Origin: Abditibacteriaceae bacterium
GTDB taxonomy: Bacteria > Armatimonadota > Abditibacteriia > Abditibacteriales > Abditibacteriaceae
Direction: 5' to 3'
DNA: 64,000 bases
NCBI GenBank assembly: GCA_019239895.1
Contig: JAFAZH010000022.1
Location: 190,583 to 254,582, forward strand
The position numbers and the translations under genes are program-made. This document shows positions 2,226 through 46,570 of this stretch, piece after piece (within the stretch, counting starts at the first letter, position 1; every line of letters starts with the position of its first letter). Under the pieces are notes generated by a model. The model saw only the letters and a list, made by a program, of their open reading frames with translations, made no database searches and was not told the origin of the DNA.

Positions 2226-3959
2226 TTAATATACTTTACGCACTTCGACGCCGCGAAAATAGAACTGAATAATCTGGCGTGCCGTCCAACCTTCACGGGC
2301 ATGGTTTTCCGCGCCGCGCTGACACATACCAGCCCCATGCCCCCAGCCCGCCCCCTTGATAACAAACGCCGTGACGGTGCCTTTGGCATCACGTTGAGGC
2401 AACACAACAAAAGTCGAACTCGGCAGGGCTGTCGTAGAGCCTAAACGACCAGAAAGCATAGCGCGAATCTGCGAGTCACCATCTAACACCACAGTAGCTA
2501 TTTTTTGAGCCGCCACAGCCACCATAGCGCCACCCTTACCCTCAACTGACTTTTGCAACTCTACCCCCTGCACCATCAACCGCTTGATATGACCGGAGGC
2601 CGACCTTTCTAAAACGCGAATCTCTGTCGCATAATCCATCTTGGCATGGGGTGTCATGGCCTGGGCTAACTGCACTGGATTAACGATACGTGTCCAACGG
2701 TAGAATTCGGGCAAGTCCCCATCCTGAAAAAGAGCAGCGGTGCCGGTCGAAGTGCGGCGGCGTGATGCCAGGGTGCGCGTCTGAGTTGCCGATGGCTGGG
2801 CATAGCTGGGTAAATCGAGTGTGCAGTAGCGCACCCAATCGGCCTCGCTCATGCTGCTCTTGCAAAGCTGCGCCGTTAGCTTATGCTCGGCGGGCGAGAA
2901 ATCGCGGACGCTTCGTAAATAGGGTTCGGGCCGACCGTGCCAGACATCTTCGGCTGCCGCCGTAATGCCGCCGCTATTAGTGCCATAAACCGCATCCGCA
3001 ACACGTCCATGATAAAGGATGACCTGTCCAGCGGTTTCATCTACTGCGCGCGAGGTTATCGCCGATTCATTCTCAGTGCCAACATAACCCTGGCAATGAT
3101 CGTAATCGCAAATATCATAGCCATCAGCGCGATGCCGCCCGGCTTGAATCTTGGAAGTCGCTTCGGAGCGCGCACAAATGGCCTGCGCTTTCAAGGCTTC
3201 CAAAGGTGCAGAGCGATTCATCTCCCACGGCACCACGCCTTTCAAGTAATCGTCTAAGGGCAAGATATTCACCAGGCGCAGCGGACTCTTATGCAGAGCT
3301 GGCTCAAAGGAATACGTCTGCGGCGCGATTTCAAACGAACCACGATAAGCCCGTTGGTAACGCGGGTTATCGCCATTGGTGGCAACGTGCGTCGGCGCAC
3401 CGCTCACGACAACAAGGGCTAACTGCCAGCCACCATAAGTTCCGCTGGACGTATGAATTTGAATTGGCCCGCTTCCATTTTGCCCCTTGCCTGCTATATG
3501 CATATTGGGGTTAAAAGTAAAGGTAACAGCATCGGCTGGACGCACCGCAAGGCGACGACCTGGCTGAAGCGCATCAGTCACCATCATGGCCCCATTAGAC
3601 CACAAAACAATTGGGCCACCCCGCGTGGTGAGGCCGACACGAGTCAGTGGGGAGCAGGGACGTGGTGTTGCAACCGGCTCTATATTGCGGCGAGTTAGAC
3701 GTGGGGCAAGTTTGGCGGCACCAGGTTTGGCGGCCCCAGGTGCTGGAGTTGTTGTGGTAATCTGCGCCGTCTGCTTGCTGTTAGGCTGAGTTGTATCCGT
3801 AGAAACTGTAACGACACTTTGCACTGGACGCCGCACTGCACCCCGCGCTAAACCGAACCAAAGACCATAACTGAGCGCGCAAACTGTCAGCAATAGGAGT
3901 AACCCGACGCCAGTGAGGAAGTGCTGTGTCCGCGAGGAAGATGAACCAAAAAACCGCAT
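2226..3959 (-). CDS. SpoIID/LytB domain-containing protein (amidase enhancer-like) with N-terminal TM/signal region
   Basis: 577 aa. The C-terminal region carries SpoIID-like signatures (YLKGVVPWEM, KAQAICARSEA, GHGAGMCQRGAENHAREGWTARQIIQFYF). Hydrophobic N-terminus. Confidence 0.75.
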   Translation of the reverse strand: MRFFGSSSSRTQHFLTGVGLLLLLTVCALSYGLWFGLARGAVRRPVQSVVTVSTDTTQPNSKQTAQITTTTPAPGAAKPGAAKLAPRLTRRNIEPVATPRPCSPLTRVGLTTRGGPIVLWSNGAMMVTDALQPGRRLAVRPADAVTFTFNPNMHIAGKGQNGSGPIQIHTSSGTYGGWQLALVVVSGAPTHVATNGDNPRYQRAYRGSFEIAPQTYSFEPALHKSPLRLVNILPLDDYLKGVVPWEMNRSAPLEALKAQAICARSEATSKIQAGRHRADGYDICDYDHCQGYVGTENESAITSRAVDETAGQVILYHGRVADAVYGTNSGGITAAAEDVWHGRPEPYLRSVRDFSPAEHKLTAQLCKSSMSEADWVRYCTLDLPSYAQPSATQTRTLASRRRTSTGTAALFQDGDLPEFYRWTRIVNPVQLAQAMTPHAKMDYATEIRVLERSASGHIKRLMVQGVELQKSVEGKGGAMVAVAAQKIATVVLDGDSQIRAMLSGRLGSTTALPSSTFVVLPQRDAKGTVTAFVIKGAGWGHGAGMCQRGAENHAREGWTARQIIQFYFRGVEVRKVY

Positions 3960-4243: not shown

Positions 4244-5299
4244 ATGATTGAAACGCAGAACGAGTTAGTGACAGGCACCGTGTTGCGGGCCAGTGGCGCA
4301 TGGTATGAAGTGGATGTGCCAGCAGAGCAATTGGCGCAGGTGTCACTTAGTCAGGGTGAAGTTCCCGACAAAGATGTCCCAGAAGGCGTCCCGGCAGGTC
4401 ATGCGATCTTGCTCTGCACCTTACGGGGCAAGCTAAAGCTTGGCAAGCGGGAAGCAGCGCAGCCCGTTTCGGTGGGCGACCAGGTACGGGTACGCCCTCT
4501 TTCCAGTTTTGGCCCGGATGCGCGGGGGCGACGTTTGCGCGAGGGCTATATTGAGGAAGTCCTCCCGCGCCGCTCGTCATTGGGACGGTCACGCTATGGC
4601 AAGACCAACCAGATTACCGTCGCTAATCTGGATCAGGCGGTGATTGTGATGTCTCTGCGCGAACCGGAACTCAACACGCATCGCCTCGACCGCTTCTTAG
4701 TCCTCGCCGAAGCTTCCGACTTGCAAGCTGTCATTTGCTTTAATAAGTGCGACTTGCTAAGACGCCGCGAATTTAAGACCGAAGTAGAGCCGTTGATGAA
4801 ACTCTATGGGGGGTTGGGCTACATCCCCCTGGCGGTTTCTGCCGAGACAGATACTGGCATCAAAGAAGTGAGGGCGACTTTAGCCGGGCATGTATCGGCC
4901 ATGTTGGGGTCTTCTGGTGTGGGCAAATCCTCCCTGGTCAATGCCATTCAACCCGGCTTGCATTTGTGGGTTGGGGATGTCATGGACATGGGCAAAGGTC
5001 GCCACACGACCACAGAAGTCTCGCTGCATCCACTCGACAGTGGCGGTTATATCGCAGACACACCCGGCATCAAAACCGTGACTCTCCTGGAACAACAGGA
5101 GATTAATTTACCACAATGTTTCCCCGAAATTGCGCGCCTGGCCCCAGAATGCCGCTTTAATAACTGCACCCATATCCATGAGCCGGGTTGCGCCGTGCGC
5201 GCCGCCGCCGAATCCGGTGCCATTGCCCAAGCTCGTTACGACAGTTATCTCAAGATGAGTAACGATGAAGTGCTACGTCCCACTAACCGCAATCGTTAA
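4244..5299 (+). CDS. rsgA: Ribosome small-subunit-dependent GTPase A (circularly permuted GTPase)
   Basis: 351 aa. G4-G1-G3 order is typical of RsgA/YjeQ (NKCDLL ... GSSGVGKSSLVNAI ... DTPG). C-terminal zinc-finger cysteines are present (CRFNNCTHIHEPGC). Confidence 0.85.
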   Translation: MIETQNELVTGTVLRASGAWYEVDVPAEQLAQVSLSQGEVPDKDVPEGVPAGHAILLCTLRGKLKLGKREAAQPVSVGDQVRVRPLSSFGPDARGRRLREGYIEEVLPRRSSLGRSRYGKTNQITVANLDQAVIVMSLREPELNTHRLDRFLVLAEASDLQAVICFNKCDLLRRREFKTEVEPLMKLYGGLGYIPLAVSAETDTGIKEVRATLAGHVSAMLGSSGVGKSSLVNAIQPGLHLWVGDVMDMGKGRHTTTEVSLHPLDSGGYIADTPGIKTVTLLEQQEINLPQCFPEIARLAPECRFNNCTHIHEPGCAVRAAAESGAIAQARYDSYLKMSNDEVLRPTNRNR

Positions 5300-6651: not shown

Positions 6652-7647
6652 TTGGTAACACGCTTATTTATCGCAACAGGAGACACTCTGGCCACCGCAA
6701 CGCGACAGGGCGATGCATGGGAAGTGCGGCATTCACTGGCGGGCAGTGGCGTGCAATGCCTGGCGCTTGACCCGCGCGATGCGCAGGTTGTCTATGCTGG
6801 CTCTGCTGGAGAGGGTGTCTGGAAAAGTAGCGATGGCGGAGTGCGCTGGCGCAATTTATCCTTACCTGAAGGCTATGTCTTCTCTTTAGCAGTGAGTCCG
6901 GCAGATGGCGCGGTTTATGCGGGCACTGAACCGAGCAAGCTGTTCCGTAGCATGGAGGGGGAGCGCGACTGGGAAGAATTAGAATCGCTGCTCACGATTC
7001 CCTCCGCCCCAACCTGGAGCTTTCCGCCCCGCCCCTGGACTTCCCATGTGCGCTGGATAGCGCCTTGCCCCTATGAGGCTGATCTCTTATTAGTGGGCAT
7101 TGAATTAGGCGGCCTCATGTATAGCGATGACGGTGGCGAGACATGGTGCGATCACCGCCCCAATGCACAGCCTGATGTCCACGCTCTCGCCTGGCACCCG
7201 ACTGTAGCGGGGCGAGTTTATGAAGCTGGAGGTGGCGGCCCAGCCTGGAGCCATAATAGTGGCTGGTTCTGGCAGCGCGTAGATGAAGGTTTAGACCGTC
7301 ACTACACCTGGGGCCTGGCCGTTGATCCTGATGACCCCGATTGCTGGTTTATCTCCGCCAGCTCCGGCCCGCGTGAAGCCCACAACCCCAACGGCAATGC
7401 CCAGGCGCATATCTATCGCTGGCAAGGAGAAGGCCCCTGGCAACAATTGCATGGCGGACTCCCCGACCCCATAGACAAATTTCCTTACGCCCTCGCCAGC
7501 GCCCCTGGACACCTCTTCGCAGGCTTGGCCGATGGTCGCATTTACCTCAGTAAAGATAAAGGTGATTCCTGGCAACTGCTAAAGCTAACTGGAGAAGCCT
7601 TAACCGGGATTCAGGCGATAGCTTGTGTCGTCGAAACAACTGAATGA
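6652..7647 (+). CDS. BNR-repeat (Ycf48/sialidase-like beta-propeller) protein
   Basis: 331 aa with three S-x-D-x-G-x-x-W BNR motifs (SSDGGVRW, SDDGGETW, SKDKGDSW). Confidence 0.6.
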   Translation: MVTRLFIATGDTLATATRQGDAWEVRHSLAGSGVQCLALDPRDAQVVYAGSAGEGVWKSSDGGVRWRNLSLPEGYVFSLAVSPADGAVYAGTEPSKLFRSMEGERDWEELESLLTIPSAPTWSFPPRPWTSHVRWIAPCPYEADLLLVGIELGGLMYSDDGGETWCDHRPNAQPDVHALAWHPTVAGRVYEAGGGGPAWSHNSGWFWQRVDEGLDRHYTWGLAVDPDDPDCWFISASSGPREAHNPNGNAQAHIYRWQGEGPWQQLHGGLPDPIDKFPYALASAPGHLFAGLADGRIYLSKDKGDSWQLLKLTGEALTGIQAIACVVETTE

Positions 7648-9049: not shown

Positions 9050-11332
9050 ATGATTGCAGTCAGGATGGTTGGGCTGATCGCTACCCTCATAGGTGCCATC
9101 ATCTGCTGGGTGATGAGCAGTCGCCAGAACTATGGCGGGCACCGTGGGCAGCAGGGCTGGCTTTTATTAGCTTTAGGCTTGATCTGTCGCAGTGTCAATG
9201 ATGGTCTTGCCATTTACGCGGCACTCCACACCAAGCCACCGCTTACCGGCTCGCTGAAAAGCTTAGTCGCTCTGGCTACAGGTGGTTACTCCCTGGCCCT
9301 GCAATCCCTGCTGCTCTGTGCTGGCTTTGCGCTGTTGGCCCTGTCCTTTTTCCAGAGCACGCATCCTCCCCAGAGTAGTGGGGAGGCCACAGAAATCGAG
9401 CGACTGAGAAATGAAGTCGCACGCCGCACCCATCAACTTTCTTCCCTGCACGCGATTACAGCCGATCTGAATAATACCCTGGATGGAGCACACGTTCTCA
9501 GCACGGGCCTGGAGCGCATGACCGAATCGGTGCAGGCGGATGCTGGCGCTATCTGGGTGCGCATTGATTTTGTGGGGCTGACAGAAACTGGGGACGCGGC
9601 TAAAGACGATGGGCCAGGCAGCATTATCAATAGCGATTCTCTGTTGCGTGAAATCGAGCGTAGCGAATCGGAGCGCAGCATCTTAGACCGCATTAAGGCG
9701 GAAGCGGCGGGCACTGCGCACGCGGCTGGGGCACAAAAGACCGCTTCTAATGCCAACTCGCGGATGTGGCGCTTAGTCGCGGCAAGGGGTGACGAAAACC
9801 CCATCCAGGCGAATGCGCTCAGCACCATGCGTGACGCTTTAGAAAACGGCGGCATGGCTTACTGCACCGAACTTTGCCGCGACCATAGCGACACCCTCGG
9901 AGTTCCCAATGGAGCGACCCACATTGTCCCCATACGCTGGAAAGGTGAGGAAATGGGGGCCGTGGGCATCGTGCGCTTGCGCGGCTTGCTGGAACCCGAT
10001 GAGCGTGAACTGCTAGATGCTTTAGCCCTCGAAGTCGGCGCAGCTTTGCAAAATGCCCAACTCTATCAGGAAGCGGTGCGCCTGGCGGATCGAGATGGCT
10101 TGACTGACTTGCTCAATCACCGGGTCATTCAACAACAACTCAGCGTCAACCTGGCCCGCGCGCAACGCTCCTCCAGCGACTTAGCGGTCATTATCATGGA
10201 CATGAAGAACTTCAAGTTCTTCAACGACACTTATGGCCATCAGGTCGGCGACAGGGTACTCCAAACCGTGTCACGCTGCTTACGCGACGCGTGCCGGGTC
10301 ACTGATATTTTGGGGCGCTACGGCGGCGACGAATTCATTGCCCTGCTACCCGATACCGATATTCAGGGCACCATAACCGTTTGCTCGCGCATTGCGGCAC
10401 GGGTCGAGAAAGAAGGTTACCAGCAAGCGAATGATGGCCGCCGTATCCCCATTGCCCTGTCGTTTGGGGCCGCCTTTTTTCCACAAGATGGCGACTCGGC
10501 CCTGGAACTGTTAGCAGCGGCGAATTCCAACCTGGAAGAAGCCAAGAACGCCAACGCGCCGCTCCTCGTGCAGCGCACTCCGGTGGAAGAAGCGCAGGAG
10601 TTGCGCCGCCTGAAAGATGCCAGTGTGGGCGGCGCTTTCGGCGTCTTGGATGCCCTGGTGACAGCGATTGATAACAAAGACCACTATACCCGCCGCCACA
10701 GCGAAGACGTGACCCACTGGGCCACTTTAATGGCGCGTGAGCTTGATTTCTCGGAGGAAACGCAGCGTGCCGTCCGTATCGCTGGTCTGCTGCACGATGT
10801 GGGAAAAATTGCCGTCCCGGATTCCGTTTTGCGCAAACCAGGCCGTTTAAATGACGACGAATTCAACATCATGCAGCAGCACCCCGTGTTCGGGGCACTG
10901 ATTGTCAAAGACGTGCCAAATTTGGAAGAAGTGTTAGGCGGTATTCGCCATCACCATGAGCGTTATGATGGTAAAGGCTACCCCGATAAGCTCAAGGGCG
11001 AAACAATCCCCATGATGGGTCGCCTGTTGGCCGTCCCCGACTGCTTTTCCGCCATGACAACTGAGCGTCCCTATCGCAAAGCCCTCAGTTGGCACGAAGC
11101 CACCAGCGAAATTGAGCGCGGCAAAAGCACCCAATTCGACCCGGTTATGGCCAATGCTTTTCTGGCGGTCATTGCTCGTCTCCTCGAAGAGCAAAAATCC
11201 CAGCAAACCCTCTTAGGCCCGTCTGGACAGGAACTTAACGGCGATGGAACCGCCGCCCTTACCCCCAGCGATGGTGCCCTGACTACGCCGACTGTTCGCC
11301 CCCGCTCCGTCACTGATGCCGAGACAACGTAA
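9050..11332 (+). CDS. Membrane-anchored GAF-GGDEF-HD-GYP signalling protein (c-di-GMP cyclase/phosphodiesterase)
   Basis: 760 aa. N-terminal TM helices, GGDEF active-site motif (RYGGDEF), HD-GYP motifs (HD...HHERYDGKGYP). Confidence 0.85.
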   Translation: MIAVRMVGLIATLIGAIICWVMSSRQNYGGHRGQQGWLLLALGLICRSVNDGLAIYAALHTKPPLTGSLKSLVALATGGYSLALQSLLLCAGFALLALSFFQSTHPPQSSGEATEIERLRNEVARRTHQLSSLHAITADLNNTLDGAHVLSTGLERMTESVQADAGAIWVRIDFVGLTETGDAAKDDGPGSIINSDSLLREIERSESERSILDRIKAEAAGTAHAAGAQKTASNANSRMWRLVAARGDENPIQANALSTMRDALENGGMAYCTELCRDHSDTLGVPNGATHIVPIRWKGEEMGAVGIVRLRGLLEPDERELLDALALEVGAALQNAQLYQEAVRLADRDGLTDLLNHRVIQQQLSVNLARAQRSSSDLAVIIMDMKNFKFFNDTYGHQVGDRVLQTVSRCLRDACRVTDILGRYGGDEFIALLPDTDIQGTITVCSRIAARVEKEGYQQANDGRRIPIALSFGAAFFPQDGDSALELLAAANSNLEEAKNANAPLLVQRTPVEEAQELRRLKDASVGGAFGVLDALVTAIDNKDHYTRRHSEDVTHWATLMARELDFSEETQRAVRIAGLLHDVGKIAVPDSVLRKPGRLNDDEFNIMQQHPVFGALIVKDVPNLEEVLGGIRHHHERYDGKGYPDKLKGETIPMMGRLLAVPDCFSAMTTERPYRKALSWHEATSEIERGKSTQFDPVMANAFLAVIARLLEEQKSQQTLLGPSGQELNGDGTAALTPSDGALTTPTVRPRSVTDAETT

Positions 11333-12043
11333 GCCGGGGCTATAAAAGCCCCGGCAGGAAGGCTAAAGCCAAGCGTCCGTTGGACGCCACGAGAATAGAG
11401 TAATAGAGTAATAGAGTAGAGGTTTAATATCTATGCTGCCTATAGAATGATTGGCCCTATCCTTCTTACCTGACATAGCACAAGTCACCCCGTAAACATC
11501 ATTGATATAATCTCGGTATGCGGCGCAGCAAGACTGAGATTTACTTGCATTTGGTGTGGGCTACAGCTCAGCGCAAGCAGATTATAACCACTCCAGTCGA
11601 GCGCCTTCTCTACCGCTGCATTCAAAACGAGGTGCAACACCTGGGATGCACTGTATTAGCCCTGGGTGGAATGCCTGATCACATTCATTTGGTAGTGCAA
11701 ACCCCGGCAACTATTTCAGTAGCGAAGTTAGCTCAACAAGTTAAAGGTGTCTCCTCTACTTTTGCGCGTGATCAGTTGACATTAGAGGAACCATTCCAGT
11801 GGCAAGACAACTATGCGGCTTTTAGCATCAGTCGCTCCCACCTAAAGAGAGTTGTTGCTTATGTGCGAAATCAAAAACAACATCATGCAGCAGGGCGTGT
11901 GTGGCAGGATTGGGAAGAAAGCGATGAGGAAGTACAATGAAACCACCCGTTAGGCAACACCTCCATTAAAATATCATCCTCGTGGCGTCCAACGGACGCT
12001 TGGCTTTAGCCTTCCTGCCGGGGCTTTTATAGCCCCGGCTTAC
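11329..12043 (+). mobile_element. REPtron-like unit: IS200/RAYT-type HuH transposase gene flanked by perfect 64-bp inverted repeats, each holding two palindromic (REP-like) hairpins
   Basis: The left IR (11329-11392) and right IR (11980-12043) are exact reverse complements. Each contains the hairpins gccggggc-tataaaa-gccccggc and gcgtcc-gtt-ggacgc. The left IR starts at the stop codon of the upstream GGDEF gene. Confidence 0.7.
11518..11940 (+). CDS. tnpA: IS200/IS605-family Y1 (HuH) transposase / REP-associated tyrosine transposase (RAYT)-like
   Basis: 140 aa. HuH motif DHIHLVV and overall similarity to IS200 TnpA (LHLVWATAQRK...). No tnpB partner is present. Confidence 0.8.
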   Translation: MRRSKTEIYLHLVWATAQRKQIITTPVERLLYRCIQNEVQHLGCTVLALGGMPDHIHLVVQTPATISVAKLAQQVKGVSSTFARDQLTLEEPFQWQDNYAAFSISRSHLKRVVAYVRNQKQHHAAGRVWQDWEESDEEVQ

Positions 12044-12054: not shown

Positions 12055-12351
12055 TCAATTGATCATAACAACCGACATACAGAGCGGGCAAATCTGGCTG
12101 TTCGGGTATTCGGGCAGGATTTCCTCACGCAACCGCTTGGCTTCGCTCTGGCGATAGCGCAAGCGTGATCCACCACGCACGAGATCATAGAGCCAGCCCC
12201 ACAGGTTAAAGCCAAGTGCTCCATAGCCACCAATGTCGGGGGCGTCCTGGCTGGAGTGGCCATCAAAATCTTCGAGCAGCACCATGCGGTAGCGGCAAGA
12301 CTGGCACAGCATCCGGGTTCTGTCGCGGGGTTTGGGATTATAGCTATCCAT
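12055..12351 (-). CDS. Hypothetical protein (Cys-containing, weak support)
   Basis: ORF trimmed to an internal Met to avoid overlap with the upstream pilin-like gene. No recognisable motifs. Confidence 0.2.
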   Translation of the reverse strand: MDSYNPKPRDRTRMLCQSCRYRMVLLEDFDGHSSQDAPDIGGYGALGFNLWGWLYDLVRGGSRLRYRQSEAKRLREEILPEYPNSQICPLCMSVVMIN

Positions 12352-14792: not shown

Positions 14793-14842
14793 AGGAACCT
14801 CTTCTTGTCCTCTCACTCCACAATAATAAATGCATAAAGGGG

Positions 14843-14957
14843 CGTGTCATGCTGAGCGAAGCGAAGCATCTACTCTGCGGAGCTATGGAGTGGCGGGTTT
14901 AACCATCGCTTTCTGAACACTCATATCAGATGCTTCGCTTCGCTCAGCATGACACGC
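14843..14957. repeat. Perfect 29-bp inverted repeat (cgtgtcatgctgagcgaagcgaagcatct ... agatgcttcgcttcgctcagcatgacacg) with a 57-nt loop. A half-copy lies at 59431-59470.
   Basis: Read directly. It sits between the AAA ATPase stop and the nagB start. A second partial copy (cttgtcatgctgaacgcagtgaagcatctactctgcggag) lies upstream of mutS. Confidence 0.5.
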
Positions 14958-16809: not shown

Positions 16810-19800
16810 CTAATCGAAAAAGTTAGAGTTAGTCCATTGATTGAAAGGTCTCTCATGCCGCTGGTTGTCACTGAGCAATAGATACTGCGCAATAGCACGT
16901 TGAGCGTCCAATTGTGGTGGACTCCAGCCATTATTGCGGCCCGCTGTTGGTATTATCCAGGACATCTCGATGGCCCGCTCAATATCTATGGCCACCATCG
17001 CTGTGGCGATACTGCCGATTTGCTTGTTCCGATCCTGCCCATCTAAGATTCCCGCCAGGCTGCGCCGCCAACGGCTGAACTCTGTCTCTAACAAGAGGCG
17101 ACTCTCGGCAGGGTCAATCCGACTGTAGTAATAAGCCAAAGCCGCAGTCCCATCGTCCCCATTAGGGCCAGCACCGCGCCCATCCGCACGTTCCGCTTTG
17201 GTGCTGTCCCAGGCTTCTCTGGCCATTGCAAACACTTCTAAACCGTATTGGGGATCAAGATTATAGGCCAGGGCCGCAATGCGGGCCAGGTTGCCTACCT
17301 TGTCAAAGGGTTGATTACTGGCGGCATTGGCGGCTTCATGCAGCACGCGCAGGGCCACATCTTTCGGCTGAAACTGGGCCGCAAGGGTGAGCGTATCAGC
17401 TTTATAAAATCGCTCCGGGATACTACGTGCAATCTCTAGAACCCCAGCAGGATCAGTCTTCCCGATGATTGGAATGAGAACCTGCGCCGCCAAACCCGCA
17501 GCGCCACCACTCCGTAAATCAGTCTTTTCCAGGGCAATCAGTTGATCCAGCCAACGCCTGGCTATCTGCGGATCATAGTTGGCACCTCTCATCACAGCCT
17601 CTTCTAACACCGACTTACGCTGTTCACTTGGTAGCTCATCTATGATTTTGCTAGTTTGGTCATAATCAACCGCAGCTATCCAGCATAGTATCCATTCCTG
17701 ATTCTTATCCTTAATTGTTTTAAATACCTCTACCGCCTTGGCGACAAACTGCTTGGCTTCATCCTTAGCACCTATCCTGCGAGCCAGTTTACTCAGGCTA
17801 ACGGCACGCATGATAATACTCTGCTGATCCACGGCGGCATTATCGGTATGGCCCTTGTCATAGGCTTTAGCCCGGTTATATAAGTCTCTGGCTAAGGCTG
17901 GGTTTATATCGGCCACAGCTAAGCCTAAGCTAATGCTGGCCGTAAAAATAGCGCCAGCGTTTTGCATTTGATGGAGGTTGGGAGGTGCCCATACTGCGGC
18001 TTGCGCCGGATTAGATCGTGCCAGGTTGCTTATAATCTGGCTCATCATGGAGTCATCTACCGAGCCATCTTTCTTCCGAGCTATTTTAAGAGCCAGGTCA
18101 GGAGCATCAGCAGCTAACACGATGGGGATGTCTTCCCGATAAAACTTCATACCTTCCGTATCAGCCCACACTTCTTCAAGCAAATCGTAAGCTCGTTGTA
18201 CATCCGACGCAACGGGTGGTTTGGGAGGAGCTAAAGTTATATTAACGGCTGTATTACTACTAATACCGTGGGCTTCGCCAATACGACCTTTATAACCCGC
18301 AACAACCATGACTTGACTGGCAGGCACAGCGGACAGCACGAACTTGCCATCGGCATCAGCAACCGCTTGGACATCTATCTCACCATCAGGCGACATCACC
18401 TTCGCGCCGGGCACTGGTTTGCCCTCCGTATCCACGACCCGGCCTGTAATGCGTGAAGTCAGCGGCACTAAAACTATATCCTGTGCCACAAACCCAGCGT
18501 TTTGCTGCGTTACCTGGCCCCCAGATACATAGTTGTAGCCATGCATATTGGTGGCAAGCGACAACTTCACTGTAGGTCTCAGCTTATCAATGGTGAATTG
18601 TCCTTGGGCATCTGTCTGGACTTCTCGCACTGTGGAACGCAATGAATAGCCATTATAAATCTCGACGGAAGCCTTGATATCAACCCCCGCCAATGGTTGT
18701 TGACCTTTGGTTATAACGCGCCCCTTGAGCGTCCACAACGTTGCTTTTTGTACGGTTACATGCAACGGGGCGTCGAGTGGCACTGTAACTTCGTTAGGTG
18801 ATATAACGTCCCACTCCCCGGCACTACTGAGATGCCACTTGCCATGAGCTAAGCCGTCCATTGTCCACTGACCCATGTTGTCCGCATCAGCTTCTAATTC
18901 TTCCATCCACTGAGCATCATGATTGGATTGATAGTCTAGTGTCGCTTTGAACTTAGCATTAGCGACTGGCTTACCCTCTTTATCTACGACAGTTCCGACC
19001 AGCGATAAGCCTTTGACCATCTGAATGGGAGCTTGCCAGGTCTCACCTTGCTTAATGTCCACCTGGATCGGCTTAGTTAGCGGTAGATATTTAGGCACTT
19101 GTGCCCAGACCGAAATAATATTCTTCCCCGGTGCTACCCGCAACTGATAATGCCCGGCTTTGTCCGTCCTCACGATACGGAATCCGCCACCTCGCGCAGG
19201 CTGATGAGGGCCGTAACAGGTTAATGGCACCCCGGCGAGAGGGGCATTACTAGCACTGTCTGTGACTGTCCCTTCAATCAGTGCGCCTTCCATTAATTTA
19301 AAATCAGCGATTTTGGTGGTTTCGCCCGTTTTAAGCTCTATATCGCTAATGGCCGGAGCCACTATCTGGCCGGAAGGGTCAACTACGGCGACAGTAATCG
19401 CACCAGAAGGTAGACTCGCTAAATAATAAGTGCCATCTGCCGCTGTTTGAGCATGGCCCCAGGCACCCTGCTTGATGCCAATAACCTTAATGTCCTGTGC
19501 AGGTTTACCATCAGCATAGACTACGTGTCCTGTCACTATCGCGCCAGGACGCGCAGTGATGACCGCGTCTGTAGCGGGTGCCCCGGCTTTAACTTGAATC
19601 ACTTGATGTGCATAGCGAGGGTCATCTAAAGCGATACCGGCCAGACTGGAAGGCGTAATGCCTGTAATACTCCACTGCCCATCGGCCCCGCTTTTAACGG
19701 TGAACTTACTGTCCCAGGCTTCTGGTACTGTTGTTAGATTCCAGTGGTCTTCTGGGGGCGGAACGGGCTGCGTATATTGCAATTTGACAATGGCATCACT

Positions 19801-20160
19801 GATGGGTTTATCTTCTCGGTCTCGAACCACACCTTGCACCTGGGTTGCGCTTTCCAGCTTAATGAGGTTATCGCCGGGCGCTAATGAAACAGTGGCCAGG
19901 GCAAGAGGCGGAGCATAGACCGTGGCCGTGCCAAAAGCCTGAGCTGTATTGGCAAGAGGTTCTAAATCGGTTTTAAACAGGCCATCTTGATCGGTTGCCA
20001 ACGTAAGGGTCTTATCTTGAAAAGGGTCTTGGCGGATGAGAACTTGCGCCCCCACAACGGGTTTACCATCCGGCCCAACGACCTTACCCTTGATCGGCAC
20101 GGCCCAGGCAGCCGACAGGCTAAACGCCAGGTACAGCAGGGGGAATAATTTCCTCAACAT
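16810..20160 (-). CDS. Large secreted protein, paralog A (1116 aa): signal peptide, multiple carboxypeptidase-regulatory-like/Big-type beta-sandwich repeats, unknown ~480-aa alpha-helical C-terminal domain
   Basis: Signal peptide MLRKLFPLLYLAFSLSAAWA. The repeated V-x-G-x-V-x-D-x-x-G-K-P-V-x-G-A motif occurs about eight times. The C-domain is conserved with the two paralogs (YYSRIDPAESRLLLE..., tail NQW..N). Confidence 0.7.
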   Translation of the reverse strand: MLRKLFPLLYLAFSLSAAWAVPIKGKVVGPDGKPVVGAQVLIRQDPFQDKTLTLATDQDGLFKTDLEPLANTAQAFGTATVYAPPLALATVSLAPGDNLIKLESATQVQGVVRDREDKPISDAIVKLQYTQPVPPPEDHWNLTTVPEAWDSKFTVKSGADGQWSITGITPSSLAGIALDDPRYAHQVIQVKAGAPATDAVITARPGAIVTGHVVYADGKPAQDIKVIGIKQGAWGHAQTAADGTYYLASLPSGAITVAVVDPSGQIVAPAISDIELKTGETTKIADFKLMEGALIEGTVTDSASNAPLAGVPLTCYGPHQPARGGGFRIVRTDKAGHYQLRVAPGKNIISVWAQVPKYLPLTKPIQVDIKQGETWQAPIQMVKGLSLVGTVVDKEGKPVANAKFKATLDYQSNHDAQWMEELEADADNMGQWTMDGLAHGKWHLSSAGEWDVISPNEVTVPLDAPLHVTVQKATLWTLKGRVITKGQQPLAGVDIKASVEIYNGYSLRSTVREVQTDAQGQFTIDKLRPTVKLSLATNMHGYNYVSGGQVTQQNAGFVAQDIVLVPLTSRITGRVVDTEGKPVPGAKVMSPDGEIDVQAVADADGKFVLSAVPASQVMVVAGYKGRIGEAHGISSNTAVNITLAPPKPPVASDVQRAYDLLEEVWADTEGMKFYREDIPIVLAADAPDLALKIARKKDGSVDDSMMSQIISNLARSNPAQAAVWAPPNLHQMQNAGAIFTASISLGLAVADINPALARDLYNRAKAYDKGHTDNAAVDQQSIIMRAVSLSKLARRIGAKDEAKQFVAKAVEVFKTIKDKNQEWILCWIAAVDYDQTSKIIDELPSEQRKSVLEEAVMRGANYDPQIARRWLDQLIALEKTDLRSGGAAGLAAQVLIPIIGKTDPAGVLEIARSIPERFYKADTLTLAAQFQPKDVALRVLHEAANAASNQPFDKVGNLARIAALAYNLDPQYGLEVFAMAREAWDSTKAERADGRGAGPNGDDGTAALAYYYSRIDPAESRLLLETEFSRWRRSLAGILDGQDRNKQIGSIATAMVAIDIERAIEMSWIIPTAGRNNGWSPPQLDAQRAIAQYLLLSDNQRHERPFNQWTNSNFFD

Positions 20161-20363
20161 AGATACCTCACTTAGCTGTATGAATAGCTAATACGGGCCT
20201 TAAAGTGCCACCTGAACTCATTCACTTGTTCATTTGGCTAATCCCACAGAGTTAGTTGGATGTTAACACTTTCAATGGTCTAAGCACAAGTAAAATGGAG
20301 GGGCAGGTATATTACCCGTCCCTCCATTTATTCAGCCATTAGCGAACAGTGAATCTATAGCCT

Positions 20364-23300
20364 TTAATCCCAACCATTGACAACATCCCACTGCTGAAAC
20401 TGCTTGGTGTGGCGGTCAGTTTCCGGGAGCAGAATGTATTGGGCGATGGAGCGCTGGGCTTCGGCTTGCGGATTGTTCCATTCCTGGCCCTTATCGGGTG
20501 GCGGCATGAGAAAGCTCATCTCTAAGGCGCGGTCTACGTCTATGGCAGCCATCGCCATTACAATGGAACGAATAGTGTAACTGCGCTGATAGGAATCATC
20601 ACCTTTGGGTGCTTGCAACTGGCGGGCAAACTCGGATTCGAGGATCAGGCGACTGGCTGCCGGATCAATGCGGCTGTAGTAGAAGGCGAACTCCGCCGTG
20701 CCGTCATTACCAGCATACCACATCTGATTTTCGCGCTGCGCTTTTTGCGCCTCCCAGTGGTCTTTGGCATCATTAAAAAACTCCATCCCCATTTTAGGAT
20801 CAAGCTCATAAGTCAGTGCTGCAACCCTGGCTATAGGCTCTGCGGAACCGTATTGCTGTCCATTGGCAATATCGCCTGCCTCACGCAGCACTTGAAGCGC
20901 GACTTCTTTGGTCTGGTATTGGGCCGCGAGAGCCAGATCAGCCGGTTTTGACCACATTTCCGTCACACTGCGTGCCAATTCGAGCGCGCCTGCCGGATCG
21001 GTTTTGCCCATAACCTGGATTAAGGTCTGCGCGGCATAACCGGAATAACTACCCGTATTAGGATCGGCTTTTTCGACCTCCTTGAGCTTATCCAACCAAC
21101 GACGGGCCAACTTGGTGTCGTAGGCAGCCGTCTGTGTCACGGCTTGCTGGAGAGCTTGTTTGCGTTGGTCAGTGGGCAATCCATCAATTAATTTCGCCGT
21201 TTGATCATACTCCAGGGTCGCCACGCCCGCGAGTGTCCATTGCTGCGGGTCTTTCATGCCTTTAATGATCGTGAGAGCGGTCTGGATATACTGCTCGGCT
21301 TCATCATTGAGACCTAACTTTCTGGCCAGTCGTGCCAGCGGCACGATTCTTGACAAAATAGACTGCTGATCTTTGGCATTCTTAGCCGTCTCTTCTTTGT
21401 CGTAATCTTTGGCCTTCTGGTAATACTGCTTGGCGAGATCAGGTTGCTTAGCTGCGATATTGATAGCAAACGTAATCCAGGCGGAGAAAGCAATTCGCTT
21501 GTCCTTGATCTGCTCCATTTTCGGCGGTGCCCAGTCCCCGGCACGAGTGGGATTCGCTTTGGCAAAGGTTGTGATAATGTTGCTCAAGATGCCATCGTCT
21601 ATGGAGCCATCTTTGCGGGACGCCAGTTTCACCGCCAGGTCAGGATTATAAGGCGCGATAGCTGTTGGGATATTATCCCGATAATATTTTCCGCCCTCGG
21701 TGGTGGCCCACAACTCATCGAGAATATCATAGGCCCGCTGCACATCGTTGCCGGGCAGGGGTTTGACCGGATTCACGGTAAGGGTTAGTGGCTTACTGCC
21801 ATCTACATCGCGCGCTTCGCCAATGCGATCTTTAACGCCACCCACAACCATCACCTGTCCGGCGGGCAGCGAGGTCAACACGAATTTACCGGTCGCATCA
21901 CTGGGCACCTGTAAATTGACATCGCCGTTGGGCGACATCACCTGTGCCCCGGCCACGGGCTTACCTGCCGCATCCACGACACGGCCTTCAATCTTGGCCG
22001 TTAATGGCACCAGCACCATGTCTTGCACCGAGAAAGCATTATCTTTTTGCGTCACAGTGCCACCGGAAACGTAGTTATAGCCGGGCATCGTCGTGGAGAG
22101 CGAGATTTTATAATCAGAGCGCAGATTCTCAACCGTATATTGCCCCTTAGCATCCGTGGTCAATTCTTGCAGGTCGCCGCGATAGGAATTTGCACCCTCT
22201 GGAATTTGGAGATACGCCTTGATTCTCACGCCTTCGAGTGGCTTATGGTCTTTGGTCAGAACGTGCCCGGTAAGGTTCAAGAGTTGCACTTTGCGGACCG
22301 TTAATTTAACCGGAGCATCGAGCGGCACTGTCAACTCTTTAGGGCCTACCACGTCCCAGGTTCCAACACCCACCAGGTTCCATTTGCCAGGCTTCAGCCC
22401 TTCCAGTGTCCACTTGCCTTCGTTATCGGGCTTGAAATTGATTGGCTGAACGTAGGCACCGCGATTCGACTCCCAGGAAAGCGAGGCTCGCATCTCAGCG
22501 TTGGCGGCTGGTTTGCCATCGGCATCAACGGCGGTGCCCGTCACGGTGAGACCCTTCGACAACTGAATCGGCACAGTTTTGGTCTCGCCTTTTTGCACTT
22601 CGACCTCAATCGTTTTATCGAGGGGTAGATACTTGGGAGCCTGATAGATCGCAATTGTAATTTTGCCGGGGGGCACGCGCAATTTGTAATGCCCATCTTT
22701 ATCAGAAGTTTCAGGCATTATCATACCGCTGGTCTGAGGTTGATCCGTTCTATAGCTGCTGACCGGTGCCCCCACTACGGGTTTGCCACTGTCCTTATCG
22801 GTAACAGTGCCTTCAATCAGGGCACCCTCGGTGAGCACCGCGTCCGTGACTTTGACGTTATCGCCTTCTTTGGTCTTGACATTTTCCACGGGCAAGGCAA
22901 TCCACTTCTTCTCCGGGTCACCGAAGCTGATCGCCACTAAGCCATCACCTAAGCCGTTGAGCGTATAGGTGCCATCAGCGGCTGTTGTGGCCGCCCCAAA
23001 GAAGCCTGAGCCTCCTGCCTGCACCCTGATGCCGGGAGCCGGTTTGCCATCTTCATGTACCACGCGTCCGGTGACGCTGGCACCAGGCCGCGCCACGATA
23101 GAGGTCACTGACGCCGCTAACCCGGCTTTAACCTGAGCATACGTGCGAATATAACGGGGGTCTTCCAGGAGAACCGCGCCCAGGCCATTGGCAGGCACAC
23201 CGTCCAATTTCCACTGGCCATTGGCATCGCTCTTGACGGTGAATTTGTCGGCTAATGCTTCCGGCACCATCGTGTAGGTGAACTGCCCATTTCCCACCCC

Positions 23301-23711
23301 CGGTAAGCCCACGTTGCCGAGTTTCACCACCGCATCGGCTACTGGTTTCCCCGCTTTATCTTTGACGATGCCTTGAACGGGAACGGATTTATCTAATTTA
23401 ATAATGTTGTCGCCAGCATTAGCCTTCAAAACCGTGCCGCCCAATGCCATATTAGGCACATAGGCCGTGGCCATGCCAAAGCTATCCGGCCAGGTAGGAC
23501 TCAGTTCTAAATCGGCTTTAAATACACCAGCCTGATCGGAGGTGAGGCTTAATGGTTTCTTTATGGTCTCATCATAAGTCGTCATGATAACCACCTGGGC
23601 ACCAGCCACCGGTTTACCATCTGGCCCCACTACCTTGCCAGTAATCGGCACCGCATGAACTATAGCCACACTCAATACAACATAAACGACGGGGAGCAGT
23701 TTTCTCAGCAT
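20364..23711 (-). CDS. Large secreted protein, paralog B (same architecture as 16810..20160)
   Basis: Start taken at MLRKLLPVVYVVLSVAIVHA signal peptide. Same repeat series and C-domain (AFYYSRIDPAASRLILE, QWDVVNGWD). Confidence 0.7.
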   Translation of the reverse strand: MLRKLLPVVYVVLSVAIVHAVPITGKVVGPDGKPVAGAQVVIMTTYDETIKKPLSLTSDQAGVFKADLELSPTWPDSFGMATAYVPNMALGGTVLKANAGDNIIKLDKSVPVQGIVKDKAGKPVADAVVKLGNVGLPGVGNGQFTYTMVPEALADKFTVKSDANGQWKLDGVPANGLGAVLLEDPRYIRTYAQVKAGLAASVTSIVARPGASVTGRVVHEDGKPAPGIRVQAGGSGFFGAATTAADGTYTLNGLGDGLVAISFGDPEKKWIALPVENVKTKEGDNVKVTDAVLTEGALIEGTVTDKDSGKPVVGAPVSSYRTDQPQTSGMIMPETSDKDGHYKLRVPPGKITIAIYQAPKYLPLDKTIEVEVQKGETKTVPIQLSKGLTVTGTAVDADGKPAANAEMRASLSWESNRGAYVQPINFKPDNEGKWTLEGLKPGKWNLVGVGTWDVVGPKELTVPLDAPVKLTVRKVQLLNLTGHVLTKDHKPLEGVRIKAYLQIPEGANSYRGDLQELTTDAKGQYTVENLRSDYKISLSTTMPGYNYVSGGTVTQKDNAFSVQDMVLVPLTAKIEGRVVDAAGKPVAGAQVMSPNGDVNLQVPSDATGKFVLTSLPAGQVMVVGGVKDRIGEARDVDGSKPLTLTVNPVKPLPGNDVQRAYDILDELWATTEGGKYYRDNIPTAIAPYNPDLAVKLASRKDGSIDDGILSNIITTFAKANPTRAGDWAPPKMEQIKDKRIAFSAWITFAINIAAKQPDLAKQYYQKAKDYDKEETAKNAKDQQSILSRIVPLARLARKLGLNDEAEQYIQTALTIIKGMKDPQQWTLAGVATLEYDQTAKLIDGLPTDQRKQALQQAVTQTAAYDTKLARRWLDKLKEVEKADPNTGSYSGYAAQTLIQVMGKTDPAGALELARSVTEMWSKPADLALAAQYQTKEVALQVLREAGDIANGQQYGSAEPIARVAALTYELDPKMGMEFFNDAKDHWEAQKAQRENQMWYAGNDGTAEFAFYYSRIDPAASRLILESEFARQLQAPKGDDSYQRSYTIRSIVMAMAAIDVDRALEMSFLMPPPDKGQEWNNPQAEAQRSIAQYILLPETDRHTKQFQQWDVVNGWD

Positions 23712-23791
23712 AAATACCTCATAGATTCTTGTGCCATGCAACACATCTGGCTTAACTATGGTGTCAAGACCCCAGATTATTTACATTTAAA

Positions 23792-25195
23792 TTAGTTCAC
23801 ATGCGACAACTTTAACCACACCGGACTATTGGGCCGCAGCGTGAGTGACGCCACTGGCCGAATAACCTGGTCGGACAGCAACTCCAGGCAGAACCGTTGG
23901 AGCACCATAGCAACAATAAGACGCATTTCAAGCAGCGCAAACTCATTACCAATGCATTGATGCGGGCCACCCAAGAAAGGAAAATAAGTGCCCTTGGGCC
24001 GCATCCCCGCTTGTTCCAGGCTAAATCGGTCAGGATCAAATACTTCTGGCTCCTGCCAAATATCAGGATGACGGTGCGTCACGAAAGGGCACAGCATAAC
24101 TGTGGAGTTGGCCGGAATACAGAAGCCACCCACTTCATCCTCTTCTATAACCTGACGCGACACGGCCCAGATGGGTGGATAGAGCCGCATCGCTTCCTCA
24201 ATGACACGCCGCGTGATGTCCAGTTGCAAAACCTCCGCGAGTTGCGGGGTGCAGGTTCCGCATACCGCCGCGACTTCTTCACGCACCTGCTGCTGGATCG
24301 CGTCATGGGAGGCCAATAAATACCACACCCAGGTGAGAGCCGTGGCGGTAGTCTCATGCCCTGCTATCAAGAAAGTTAAAACCTCACTGCGGAGTTGGTC
24401 ATCCGTCATGGCTTCGCCTGTCTCCTCGTCACGCGCCTGCATGAACATAGAGAGCAAATCACCATGATCCCGACCCTCGCGCCGCCGCTCTTGAATCAGC
24501 GACAGGACAAGCTGATTCAAGGTCGTAGCGGCCTGCTGGAAGCGACGGTTGGCTCTGGTCGGAACACTTGTGGGCAGCGCCGTGAAGGGATGATCGAAGC
24601 GGTATCTCAGATATTGGCTCAGGACATCAAATGATTTTCCCACCATATCCGCTTCACCCCCCACATCACGGTCAAAGAGCGTGCGACCAGCGATGGTCAA
24701 AGCCAGACCCGCCATCTCCGGGCCAATCTCTAATGCTTGCCCTGACGTGGCGGCGTCCCGCCAGCGGGCCAAGAGTTGGGCCGTGGCATCTACCATAATC
24801 GCGGCGTAGGCGGCTAACCGCTGGTGTTGGAAAGCGGGTTGTGCCAGTCGCCGTTGCCGCCGCCAATGATTGCCCTCAGACACGAGCAGATTGTCCCCGA
24901 ATAGTTGGCGCAGCAAACGATAATGCCAACCCCGCAGATAATTCTTCTGATGGGTAAAGAGGACGCGCCGGATATGATCGGGGTGAAACAGAAAATGAAG
25001 CAGCAAAGGGCCAATACGCAAGCGCATCACGTCCCCGCACCGTGCTCGGCCCTGGATCTGAAAAGCGAGCGGATCATGCAAAAATTCCTGCAATGTGCCA
25101 TAGGGCAATGGCAGCCATTGCACCATACCAGGAGCCATAGTCATTTCTATCACCTCCGTTGCACCTATTGTCTTAGCCGCCTCAGCCCACCCCAA
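23792..25195 (-). CDS. Cytochrome P450
   Basis: 467 aa. Heme-binding loop FLGGPHQCIGNEFA, ExxR (EEAMRLYPP) and the oxygen-binding helix AGHETTA. Confidence 0.85.
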   Translation of the reverse strand: MGWAEAAKTIGATEVIEMTMAPGMVQWLPLPYGTLQEFLHDPLAFQIQGRARCGDVMRLRIGPLLLHFLFHPDHIRRVLFTHQKNYLRGWHYRLLRQLFGDNLLVSEGNHWRRQRRLAQPAFQHQRLAAYAAIMVDATAQLLARWRDAATSGQALEIGPEMAGLALTIAGRTLFDRDVGGEADMVGKSFDVLSQYLRYRFDHPFTALPTSVPTRANRRFQQAATTLNQLVLSLIQERRREGRDHGDLLSMFMQARDEETGEAMTDDQLRSEVLTFLIAGHETTATALTWVWYLLASHDAIQQQVREEVAAVCGTCTPQLAEVLQLDITRRVIEEAMRLYPPIWAVSRQVIEEDEVGGFCIPANSTVMLCPFVTHRHPDIWQEPEVFDPDRFSLEQAGMRPKGTYFPFLGGPHQCIGNEFALLEMRLIVAMVLQRFCLELLSDQVIRPVASLTLRPNSPVWLKLSHVN

Positions 25196-25361
25196 CTCGT
25201 TATGGCAGAGGTTCTGAGAGGATTTATAAAGAGCCAGGGCGATATATTCCTGTTAGCGCAGAGCACAATACCATGCGCCACACCCTTTTCTATATATGGA
25301 CAGTCACCGTTCAAAAAGGACAGGCGGCAAGAAAAATTATTTCTTGGGCCGCTAACTGGTG

Positions 25362-28751: not shown

Positions 28752-28980
28752 TCCGGTCTCCTGGTTTGAACTGAGTGAGCATTGGGCATCATTTGGATGC
28801 ATATTTGGGGCAAAAAGTTCGTTAATGGCTTGCCCCATTTAGAACTTGGAAAGCGAAGAAAGTGGCACCAACTACGGCCACTGAAGAATTCAGATAAGAA
28901 CCCCCGGATTCTGTCGGAGGTTCTTATCAATAGCGGTTAGAGGAGACGCTGGGAAGAATGTAAGGCTGGTTAATGCAGCA

Positions 28981-29739
28981 CTACTGCAAGGTGGTTTCGG
29001 CTGGCCCCATAGATTTGAAGGTTTCTGCCGATTCGTTGGTCGTTTTAGCGGCAGGCGCAGGCAGAGCCATACCCTCTTTCGCGGCGAAATCGGCCAGGGC
29101 TTGATCGGCTAGGGCGCGTTGCTCGCTTTCTTTCAGTTCAAAGTCGTTGACATTCAGGCTGTCGCGGGCCACACGAGCGCGTCCGGCAGCTTTCTGGCGG
29201 TCTTCTTCGACCATCTCATGCAAACGGTTGAGTGTATCGCCGGAGCCGCCGATGGACGAAATCATGCCCGTCGCCATTTCCGTCATTTCGGCAGTGGCTT
29301 TTTTGATCTTTAAGTCGTCAATGGCATACTTAAGCGCCTCAATTTTAGACTTGGCCGCATCTACTGTCACATTACGGGCTTTGGTCAAGTCCTTATAAGT
29401 CGCTTCAGCCTGCTCAAGCTGCTTACGGTTCTCTTCTAATTCACTGGTTACAGTTTGGAGCCGCAAAGCTTGCTGGCCCGCAATTTCATTGTTACCAGCA
29501 CGCAGGTTAGCCGCCGTTTTAGCGCGCAGTTCATGCTCTTCGGTTTCAAGCTTTTTGACTTGCGCCATCAGCCGCTCGCACATTCCTGCATGAGTCGCTA
29601 AACCCTGGTTATAGCGAGCAATCTGCTTGCGCAAATTTTCCTTCTCCACTTCCAGCAAGGCTTCCGGGTTCTGTCTTTCCATGCCGGAGATGAAGAGGCC
29701 AAAAAATCCCCGAACCAGGTTCGAGAGTCGCTTAAACAT
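28981..29739 (-). CDS. pspA: PspA/IM30 (Vipp1/ESCRT-III superfamily) protein
   Basis: 252 aa. The N-terminal amphipathic helix MFKRLSNLVRGFFGLFISGMERQNPEALLE and the long coiled coil are typical of the PspA/IM30 family. Confidence 0.8.
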   Translation of the reverse strand: MFKRLSNLVRGFFGLFISGMERQNPEALLEVEKENLRKQIARYNQGLATHAGMCERLMAQVKKLETEEHELRAKTAANLRAGNNEIAGQQALRLQTVTSELEENRKQLEQAEATYKDLTKARNVTVDAAKSKIEALKYAIDDLKIKKATAEMTEMATGMISSIGGSGDTLNRLHEMVEEDRQKAAGRARVARDSLNVNDFELKESEQRALADQALADFAAKEGMALPAPAAKTTNESAETFKSMGPAETTLQ

Positions 29740-38462: not shown

Positions 38463-38467
38463 AATTC

Positions 38468-46569: not shown

Positions 46570-46570
46570 A

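Follow-up and report, generated by a model that had tools for sequence, protein, structure and literature searches.

Repetitive extragenic palindromic (REP) sequences and the REP-associated tyrosine transposases (RAYTs) form the textbook example of a prokaryotic transposase that has been domesticated and lives with non-autonomous repeats of its own; to our knowledge, the partnership has so far been known only from class-2 Y1 proteins, chiefly those of Proteobacteria, Cyanobacteria and Bacteroidetes. The TnpA group of the insertion sequence (IS) IS200 has solved structures and a well-understood single-strand mechanism. Subclass 1.2 of the TnpAY1 proteins has been described as a non-IS sister group of IS200 with low copy number and low intragenomic identity, carrying the motifs DH[IV]H, WQ and Y---Q--HH, a length of ~148 aa and a conserved C-terminal tail (Quentin et al. 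2018, PMC6006769). It has already been described for REPs that their ends can provide stop codons, that they form heterodimers, and that their dimers may point the heads outward and keep conserved spacers (Di Nocera et al. 2013, PMC3733652), and REPs are known as 3′-end RNA elements (PMC3733652). Here we analyzed a 64-kb stretch of DNA (the window, which means the whole stretch throughout) from an Abditibacteriaceae metagenome-assembled genome (MAG), in which the locus at 11329–12043 is probably REPtron-like: a fixed single-copy gene for a Y1/HUH protein of subclass 1.2 lies between inverted ~60-nt units of three hairpins each. The unit belongs to a dispersed family, of which ~40 doublets were observed, mostly a few nucleotides from gene stop codons and typically ~135–165 nt long. 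This reading draws on how the locus is built, on the spread of its repeats, on the fixed single-copy gene, on an architecture in which gene and unit vary together, and on the match between paralogues and repeat subtypes, features that together define REPtron or RAYT-REPIN systems.

The longest inverted repeat of the window is formed by two arms of 68 nt at 11329–11396 and 11976–12043, which are separated by 579 nt and contain one mismatch (99% complementarity). The first mismatch was found at 11394, so that the exact inverted stretch covers 65 nt (Table 1). A sequence-only reading of this DNA had reported exact inverted repeats of 64 nt around a 140-aa HuH transposase, each holding two hairpins; the repeats and both hairpins are real, but the exact length is 65 nt and a small middle hairpin brings the number per arm to three. 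From the outside inwards these are hp1 (GCCGGGGC-TATAAAA-GCCCCGGC), the middle hairpin hpM (GGC-TAAA-GCC), which covaries among relatives, and hp2 (GCGTCC-GTT-GGACGC), with 0 and 0.07 chance matches expected for hp1 and hp2, respectively, in shuffled controls. When folded as single-stranded DNA, each arm forms three separate hairpins (−21.1 kcal/mol, z = −5.3), and an Rfam search returned zero matches. The TAA stop codon of the left neighbouring gene, at 11330–11332, lies within the left arm.

The sequence-only reading had proposed a search for further copies of the repeat, whose absence elsewhere would have refuted it, and such copies were found outside the window. A metagenome scan with the conserved core GGCAGNNAGGCTNAAGCCNNNCGTCC as the pattern returned 38 loci, 34 of them from sample Ga0213875 on ~25 long contigs, including the 290,943-bp contig Ga0213875_10000014 (locus L047), which carries P0004, a paralogue of the window protein P0001. 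With a covariance model (R1, built from alignment A1 of 17 units, in which only hpM and hp2 were modelled as pairs), 80 units were identified on the fetched loci and resolved into 39 inverted doublets, with hp1 facing outward and hp2 inward, of 125–184 nt overall; the doublets fold into long hairpins with z-scores from −9 to −12.6. Of the 38 loci, only that of P0004 yielded a Y1 gene in a tblastn search, and the other 37 have no transposase gene. Extra doublets in the locus flanks, which did not fit the scan pattern, allow the density to be extrapolated to roughly one doublet per ~70 kb, or ~50 per genome. We infer that the doublet contigs of Ga0213875 belong to the window's organism, because P0001 and P0004 (65% identical, at different loci) co-occur in one MAG, GCA_019247425.1, and in one ENA assembly, ERZ27313809, because the P0004 contig lies in Ga0213875, and because Ga0213875 loci contain four further repeat families that also occur in the window. 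A scan of genome contigs with GTAAGCCGGGGCN7GCCCCGGC gave seven matches in unrelated taxa; this collection lacks the source genome and is therefore silent on dispersal.

The units could be classified into three subtypes by hp1: type a, GCCGGGGC-TATAAAA-GCCCCGGC (36 units), which is the window type; type b, GCCGGGCAT-TGAA-ATACCCGGC (22 units), which flanks P0004; and type c, GCCGGGCC-TRTAAAA-GACCCGGC (22 units), for which no gene was found. Two paralogues are thereby matched to two repeat subtypes, P0001 to type a and P0004 to type b. P0007 was considered as the type-c paralogue and rejected, as it comes from another organism. Nearly all doublets are heterodimeric, consisting of an alpha half (GGCTAAAGCC plus CCGTCC..GGACGG) and a beta half (GGCCGTTGGCC or a longer stem, plus GCGTCC-GTT-GGACGC) with a conserved centre between them. 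The two window arms are both beta-like in hp2 and alpha-like in hpM, and compared with the window arm the nearest dispersed copies agree at 61 of 64 positions, the median being 54 of 64. The left arm leads into a triplicated type-b centre (CACGA..ATAGAGTAATAG), and the triple 8-mer tandem repeat that the sequence-only reading had seen after this arm was recovered by Tandem Repeats Finder (TRF). The right arm leads into a centre of type a like that of L041: the minus strand of 11941–11978 reads CACGAGGATGATATTTTAATGGAGGTGT and its L041 counterpart CACGAGGATGAAGTTTAATGGGTGT, and the inner half-unit expected after this centre is missing. Judged from these sequences, the window looks like two flanking doublets that have lost their inner halves and kept the outer halves and centres, a reduced form of the layout found around P0004 and P0007.

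The doublets have a marked preference for gene ends. Among 78 outer doublet ends, 34 lie at −30 to +13 nt relative to the stop of an inward-reading open reading frame (ORF) of at least 100 codons, compared with an average of 3.8 and a maximum of 10 for random positions in 200 trials, and in 49 of the 78 a stop triplet begins within 9 nt of hp1. The abutment of the window's left arm on a stop codon is therefore a habit of the whole family.

Three further features of the doublets were observed. An extra GTAG-headed hairpin, GTAG-GGGCAYGAT..ATCRTGCCC, sits exactly at the centre of 7–8 doublets of all three hp1 types (L031 5668, L034 1820, L042 81, L051 2572, L052 2072, L054 3300 and L055 1815, with a variant in L048), and it never occurs alone in the ~640 kb of fetched sequence. 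A nested long hairpin of ~45–55 nt was found between hp1 and hp2 at L047 2340–2459, L056 2488–2602 and L019 820–928, and the stem differences between L047 and L056, which come from the same metagenome, are compensatory. In addition, at L040 6592–6606 / 6745–6759, L045 4564–4576 / 4716–4728 and L044 3251–3259 / 3402–3410 the DNA that flanks hp1 externally is an inverted repeat of its own, private to the doublet (CTGCATTAGA, AGTTGCTAAGGGT and TCAAGGTGA); the halves of these three doublets are nonetheless of different alpha/beta type.

The same architecture was found in diverged relatives. At all eight homologue loci (L011, L014, L018, L019, L020, L021, L069 and L071) the gene is framed by inverted three-hairpin units and its product is 52–67% identical to the window protein; the proteins of the seven loci other than L011 are 52–62% identical and come from several organisms. 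At L011, the locus of P0004, four homologous units (GTAG/CCGGGCATTGAAATACCCGG/CAGGGAGGCTGAAGCC/AAGCGTCC....GGACG) surround the gene in a doublet-gene-doublet layout, which is also that of the P0007 locus, while L019 and L071 resemble the window in arrangement, the L071 arms being 67 nt long and 97% complementary. Across lineages the hairpin sequences change and the pairing is kept, with compensatory changes in hpM (GGCT/AGCC, AGCC/GGCT or GGCC/GGCC) and hp2 (CGTCC/GGACG versus GCCCG/CGGGC); hp1 was missed by RNAalifold on a MAFFT alignment of the units, as the lineages differ in its register. A GTAG head is present at L011 unit C and at L014 unit 1, and gene-distant copies were detected by the covariance model in L019, L020 and L069. 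The arms beside the gene are 97–100% alike in the window, L019 and L071, a greater likeness than that of the dispersed units to the window arm; this suggests concerted evolution or selection on the flanking pair rather than a recent jump. The sequence-only reading had taken the identity of the arms and their abutment on the stop codon as signs of recent mobility or ongoing gene conversion: the identity recurs and fits concerted evolution, whereas the abutment is common to the family and no sign was found that the gene moved recently.

The window protein has a single Pfam domain, Y1_Tnp (91 bits), and contains PDHIHLVV. Its HUH motif (H55-I56-H57) and its presumed catalytic tyrosine (Y115, in YVRNQKQHH, followed by an acidic tail) align with those of IS608 TnpA, and its WQ motif is W95-Q96. 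The NCBIfam IS200/IS605 equivalog model transpos_IS200 (NF033573) was passed with 77 bits against a cutoff of 55, and the PDB matches were IS200/IS605-type TnpAs alone, namely Sulfolobus 2EC2 (3e-10), IS608 (2e-8) and ISDra2 (3e-6). A motif census of the 120 best homologues, with a median length of 145 aa, found Y---Q--HH in 97, WQ in 110 and DH[VI]H in 114, and a C-terminal tail, HHA.G..W.EWEE.DEE, is conserved in the homologue family. No tnpB-like ORF lies between the arms. By motifs and length, rather than by the authors' hidden Markov models or tree, the protein fits TnpAY1 subclass 1.2, and by these sequence criteria it is not a class-2 RAYT, as both the curated RAYT model and the class-2 motif Y---NP fail. 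Against the outcome that the sequence-only reading had named as refuting, firm clustering with canonical IS200 TnpA, stand the single-copy gene in a fixed context and a protein with WQ and Y---Q--HH, although the protein does score as IS200-family.

The exact window protein was found in several samples, each time between the GGDEF gene and the 98-aa ORF (L001–L003), on contigs that match the window at 99.96–100% identity and in the same orientation. The closest other protein to P0001 is 67% identical, P0004 occurs in one genomic context, and a distant homologue, P0111, was found on at least 24 contigs with neighbours that are always the same. On this comparison of contexts, the window-type genes look like fixed chromosomal genes, apparently single-copy, and not like active insertion sequences. 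With respect to empty sites, which the sequence-only reading had suggested looking for, the syntenic relative L067 (GGDEF orthologue 71% identical, small ORF 68% identical) keeps the order of pseudopilin, small ORF and convergent GGDEF gene around a 125-nt spacer without gene and without unit, and the window GGDEF protein stops two residues short of its L067 orthologue. In L068, a nearer relative (95% identical), the small ORF is followed by unrelated, AT-rich DNA, and the contig is very short. The gene order is thus kept without the element, but no alignment of a clean empty site was achieved, L067 being too diverged (71% at the protein level) and the downstream DNA of the short L068 contig being unrelated. 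At the paralogue locus, two independent short-read assemblies (L012 and L013) break 6 nt past unit C, which is consistent with a multi-copy unit in that genome.

If the protein works analogously to IS200/IS605 TnpA and E. coli TnpAREP, it would bind the hairpins in single-stranded form, for instance on the template of the lagging strand, and its HUH/Tyr site could cut and rejoin beside hp1, so that doublets would be copied or moved in trans. The gene itself would be stationary and vertically inherited. The window copy may have arisen by reduction of a doublet-gene-doublet, of which the two outer halves and their centres remain, and its two arms may be held identical by conversion or by selection for recognition. 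The broader proposal, to which we give even chances, is that subclass 1.2 represents a further domesticated tyrosine transposase lineage with its own REPIN-like population of three-hairpin alpha/beta heterodimers at gene ends, and that a RAYT-like partnership arose in class 1 separately from the class-2 RAYTs. If this is true, the class-1 partnership would stand, as a living intermediate, between IS200 elements with hairpin ends and REPtrons.

Several observations weigh against reading the locus as REPtron-like. Within the window no dispersed copy was detected by exact matching, with 3 mismatches, with variable loops or with the covariance model; only the two arms were found, and the next-best covariance-model matches reach 9 bits (E > 1). 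On its own, this result would have led to a mistaken rejection of the REP idea; given the doublet density estimated above, a 64-kb window without a dispersed copy is unremarkable. The window contig itself is absent from the returns of every collection scan, which is why the shared genome of the Ga0213875 doublets and the window had to be deduced from co-occurrence. The canonical GT[AG]G is not a conserved feature of the heads, which read GTAA in the window and TAGA, TGAA, AGTA, TAAA, GTAG and others in the dispersed units. As for the protein, the curated RAYT model REP_Tyr_transpos (NF047646) gives 35 bits against a cutoff of 80, the PDB search did not match E. coli TnpAREP (4ER8) at E ≤ 1, and Y---NP occurs in none of the 120 best homologues, the window protein carrying Y---Q. 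Moreover, subclass 1.2 was described without REPs, with a 'no' in the REP column (PMC6006769); the reported lack of REP-like sequences and of terminal secondary structures beside its genes, a property and not a definition of the subclass, does not hold for the window gene and its eight relatives, which are flanked by structured inverted units. The sequence-only reading had called the locus REPtron-like, with a RAYT/IS200-type transposase; the REPtron-like organization with dispersed repeats stands, but the protein is not a class-2 RAYT.

Among the alternatives, the one we take most seriously, though still an unlikely one, is that the Y1 gene or an IS remnant is a passenger inserted in an existing palindromic doublet, the doublets being moved by another enzyme or immobile. 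Some ISs do target REPs, the window gene sits at the position of a doublet centre, and the GTAG-headed hairpin is likewise inserted at the centre of 7–8 doublets. Such chance insertion does not sit well with eight diverged homologues in different organisms that are all unit-flanked, with unit sequence tracking protein lineage, nor with two paralogues of one genome having different hp1 subtypes; in addition, the layout at P0004 and P0007 is doublet-gene-doublet and not a gene inside a doublet, and the window arms lead into different centre types, which two flanking doublets fit better than one split doublet. It is very improbable that the locus is an ordinary autonomous IS200/IS605 insertion sequence, with the arms as its ends and the whole 715-bp unit transposing. 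The equivalog score above its cutoff, the best PDB matches, which are IS200/IS605 TnpAs, and a related genome without the unit at this site agree with such an element, but the exact protein occurs in one context only, its closest paralogue is 65% identical, and the homologues are single-copy at fixed sites. The ends are also long inverted repeats and not same-strand subterminal hairpins of the IS200 type, there is no tnpB, WQ replaces W[TS], and 37 loci have the repeat without any gene.

The enrichment of doublet ends near stops (34/78 versus 3.8 expected at random), a terminator-like call for hp1 of the right arm and the known 3′-end RNA role of REPs raise the question of whether the arms are mainly structural elements of host RNA or DNA, such as bidirectional 3′-end hairpins or mRNA stabilisers between convergent genes, with the link to the gene being secondary. 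As a full explanation this too has very little chance, since it leaves the multi-copy related family, its subtypes and its constant linkage to a Y1 gene unexplained, and most hairpins lack a U-tract and none matches Rfam; a host-level structural role is compatible with the REPtron-like reading, may well exist in addition and is not a true alternative to it. The least credible of the four explanations is an invertible switch in which the 579-bp segment flips between the perfect 65-nt repeats. Perfect long inverted repeats around a short segment would suit such a switch, but the segment has the same orientation in three independent assemblies from other samples at 99.96–100% identity, no invertase gene lies nearby, and the family context accounts for the repeats. 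The REPtron-like reading is accordingly retained.

The features of the locus and its neighbours are collected in Table 1. From its sequence and position, the motif TGATATAAT upstream of the transposase-like gene (tnp) could be a promoter that gives a tnp mRNA with no leader or almost none; a consensus promoter scan upstream of the gene made no call, this motif included.

Table 1. Features of the REPtron-like locus and its neighbours, in window positions.
Feature	Position	Strand	Basis or remark
Left neighbour, GGDEF + HD-GYP signalling gene	9050–11332	+	Pfam GGDEF, HD_5; context, outside the element
Left arm, one three-hairpin unit	11329–11393	+	Exact inverted repeat; covariance model R1, 64.4 bits; DNA fold
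Left arm, head GTAA	11329–11332	+	
Left arm, hp1	11333–11355	+	
Left arm, hpM	11361–11370	+	
Left arm, hp2	11373–11387	+	
Left arm, tail CACGAG		+	
Tandem 8-mer AATAGAGT x 3.1	11394–11418	+	TRF; matches type-b doublet centre CACGATAGAGTAATAG of L030 and L047, triplicated here
Extended −10-like motif TGATATAAT	11503–11511	+	Read from sequence; ends 6 nt before the tnp ATG
Y1/HUH tyrosine transposase-like gene (protein P0001), 140 aa	11518–11940	+	Pfam, NCBIfam, PDB, motifs
Type-a doublet-centre remnant beside right arm	11941–11978	−	Comparison with doublet centres
Right arm, three-hairpin unit, inverted	11979–12043	−	Exact inverted repeat; covariance model R1, 64.2 bits
Right arm, hp2	11985–11999		
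Right arm, hpM	12002–12011		
Right arm, hp1	12017–12039		
Right arm, head GTAA	12040–12043	−	
Right neighbour, conserved 98-aa ORF convergent on the element	12055–12351	−	Stop 11 nt from right arm; context

Other repeats were noticed in the window. A different palindromic doublet at 2083–2203 has the canonical GTAG head, in the form GTAG-GCCCGCCGC-TAAA-GCAGCGGGC, and continues as AGCCCGG-TGA-ACCGGGCT, with its mirror image 14 nt on; kin of it were found at 7 places in Ga0213875 loci, and the genome thus seems to hold a second REP-like family. An inverted-repeat family CCCCTTCCCG..CGGGAAGGGGG, flanked by CCTAACCCCCC, has three copies in the window (46570–46620, 46719–46769 and 49922–49963) and three in the Ga0213875 loci and occurs also in a different organism (L019 1020–1070), so that it looks widespread. 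A perfect 30-nt inverted repeat, GCGTGTCATGCTGAGCGAAGCGAAGCATCT, lies at 14842–14871 / 14928–14957 with a 56-nt spacer, and a third copy, 89% identical, is found 44 kb away at 59430–59473. Palindromes made of CACAAAG-like heptamer runs (TTTCAACACAAAGACCACAAAGAG...) occupy 39897–40028, 44023–44128 and 48742–48869 and were found in none of the other fetched loci, whereas short units of the GATCCTC / TATCTTC type with TGTGTTCATC motifs form inverted pairs at 38371–38464, 41223–41336 and 54917–55057 and are also present in three Ga0213875 loci. The 9-nt periodic GGT/GGC/CGC/TAC array at 45726–45938 is probably a coding Gly-rich (RGG/GGY) low-complexity segment. A block of 3.5–5 kb at ~17000–29000 exists in three diverged direct copies, 65–83% identical and spaced by 3545 and ~5000 nt, which are probably tandem paralogous genes.

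What is new here is a REPtron-like partnership with an IS200-proximal Y1 subclass, its composite three-hairpin units and a new phylum, and not a new principle. In the literature searched, no later paper on a REP association of subclass 1.2 was found, and there is apparently no description of comparable elements in Abditibacteriota, a little-studied host phylum. Confirmation of the partnership would provide subclass 1.2 with its first assigned role and would mean either several origins or an earlier origin of REP-type partnerships within the Y1 family; a small 140-aa protein with subtype-specific hairpins (a, b and c) would then offer a tractable system for the recognition and movement of doublets. 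As the doublets break assemblies and overlie stop codons, they also matter for the annotation of these MAGs.

Compared with known systems, the locus is most like the REPtron or RAYT-REPIN systems, that is, E. coli TnpAREP with REPs and bacterial interspersed mosaic elements (BIMEs), the Pseudomonas RAYTs with REPINs, and TnpAY1 subclasses 2.2, 2.4, 2.5, 2.7 and 2.8. It shares with them a single-copy Y1/HUH gene within inverted palindromic repeats, dispersal of these repeats as inverted doublets that fold into long hairpins, a repeat subtype for each paralogue, heterodimeric doublets with outward heads and conserved spacers, and a position after gene ends in which the repeat sometimes provides the stop codon; these likenesses of flanking, dispersal, subtypes, heterodimers and gene ends are all described for REPs (PMC6006769, PMC3733652). 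It differs from them in its protein, which belongs to class 1 (Y---Q--HH, IS200-proximal) whereas RAYTs belong to class 2 (Y---NP), in its ~60-nt composite of three different hairpins with a GTAA or variable head in place of one GT[AG]G-tagged hairpin, in its host phylum, Abditibacteriota, and in a copy number of tens rather than hundreds. The cyanobacterial miniature inverted-repeat element Nezha / ISNpu3 was considered as a precedent and dropped, as the texts give terminal and direct repeats and no Y1 link.

With subclass 1.2 (PMC6006769) the window gene and its relatives share DH[IV]H, WQ and Y---Q--HH, a length of ~140–150 aa, a short conserved C-terminal tail, low copy number, low intragenomic identity and the absence of IS behaviour, but they are consistently framed by structured repeats that are also dispersed. 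The IS200/IS605 elements (IS200, IS608 and ISDra2; subclass 1.1) are closest by solved structures and curated models and have the same HUH/Tyr core, and their hairpin-bearing ends, here as there, are presumably read as single-stranded DNA. Canonical ISs are however multi-copy and near-identical, while here one context and a 65%-identical relative in the MAG were found; and they have asymmetric ends whose hairpins lie on one strand, lack long terminal inverted repeats and in many cases carry a tnpB, none of which holds for this locus. Finally, the TIRYT/TIRtrons resemble the locus in that long inverted repeats enclose a Y1 gene and that some of these repeats make up families of moderate abundance, arranged as dimers (Di Nocera et al. 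2013, PMC3733652). They are mostly of subclass 2.1, with ~238 aa and a C-terminal helix-turn-helix, and their terminal inverted repeats share GGGGWSAS and are not hairpin arrays (PMC6006769), in contrast to the 140-aa protein without a helix-turn-helix and the three-hairpin arms described here.

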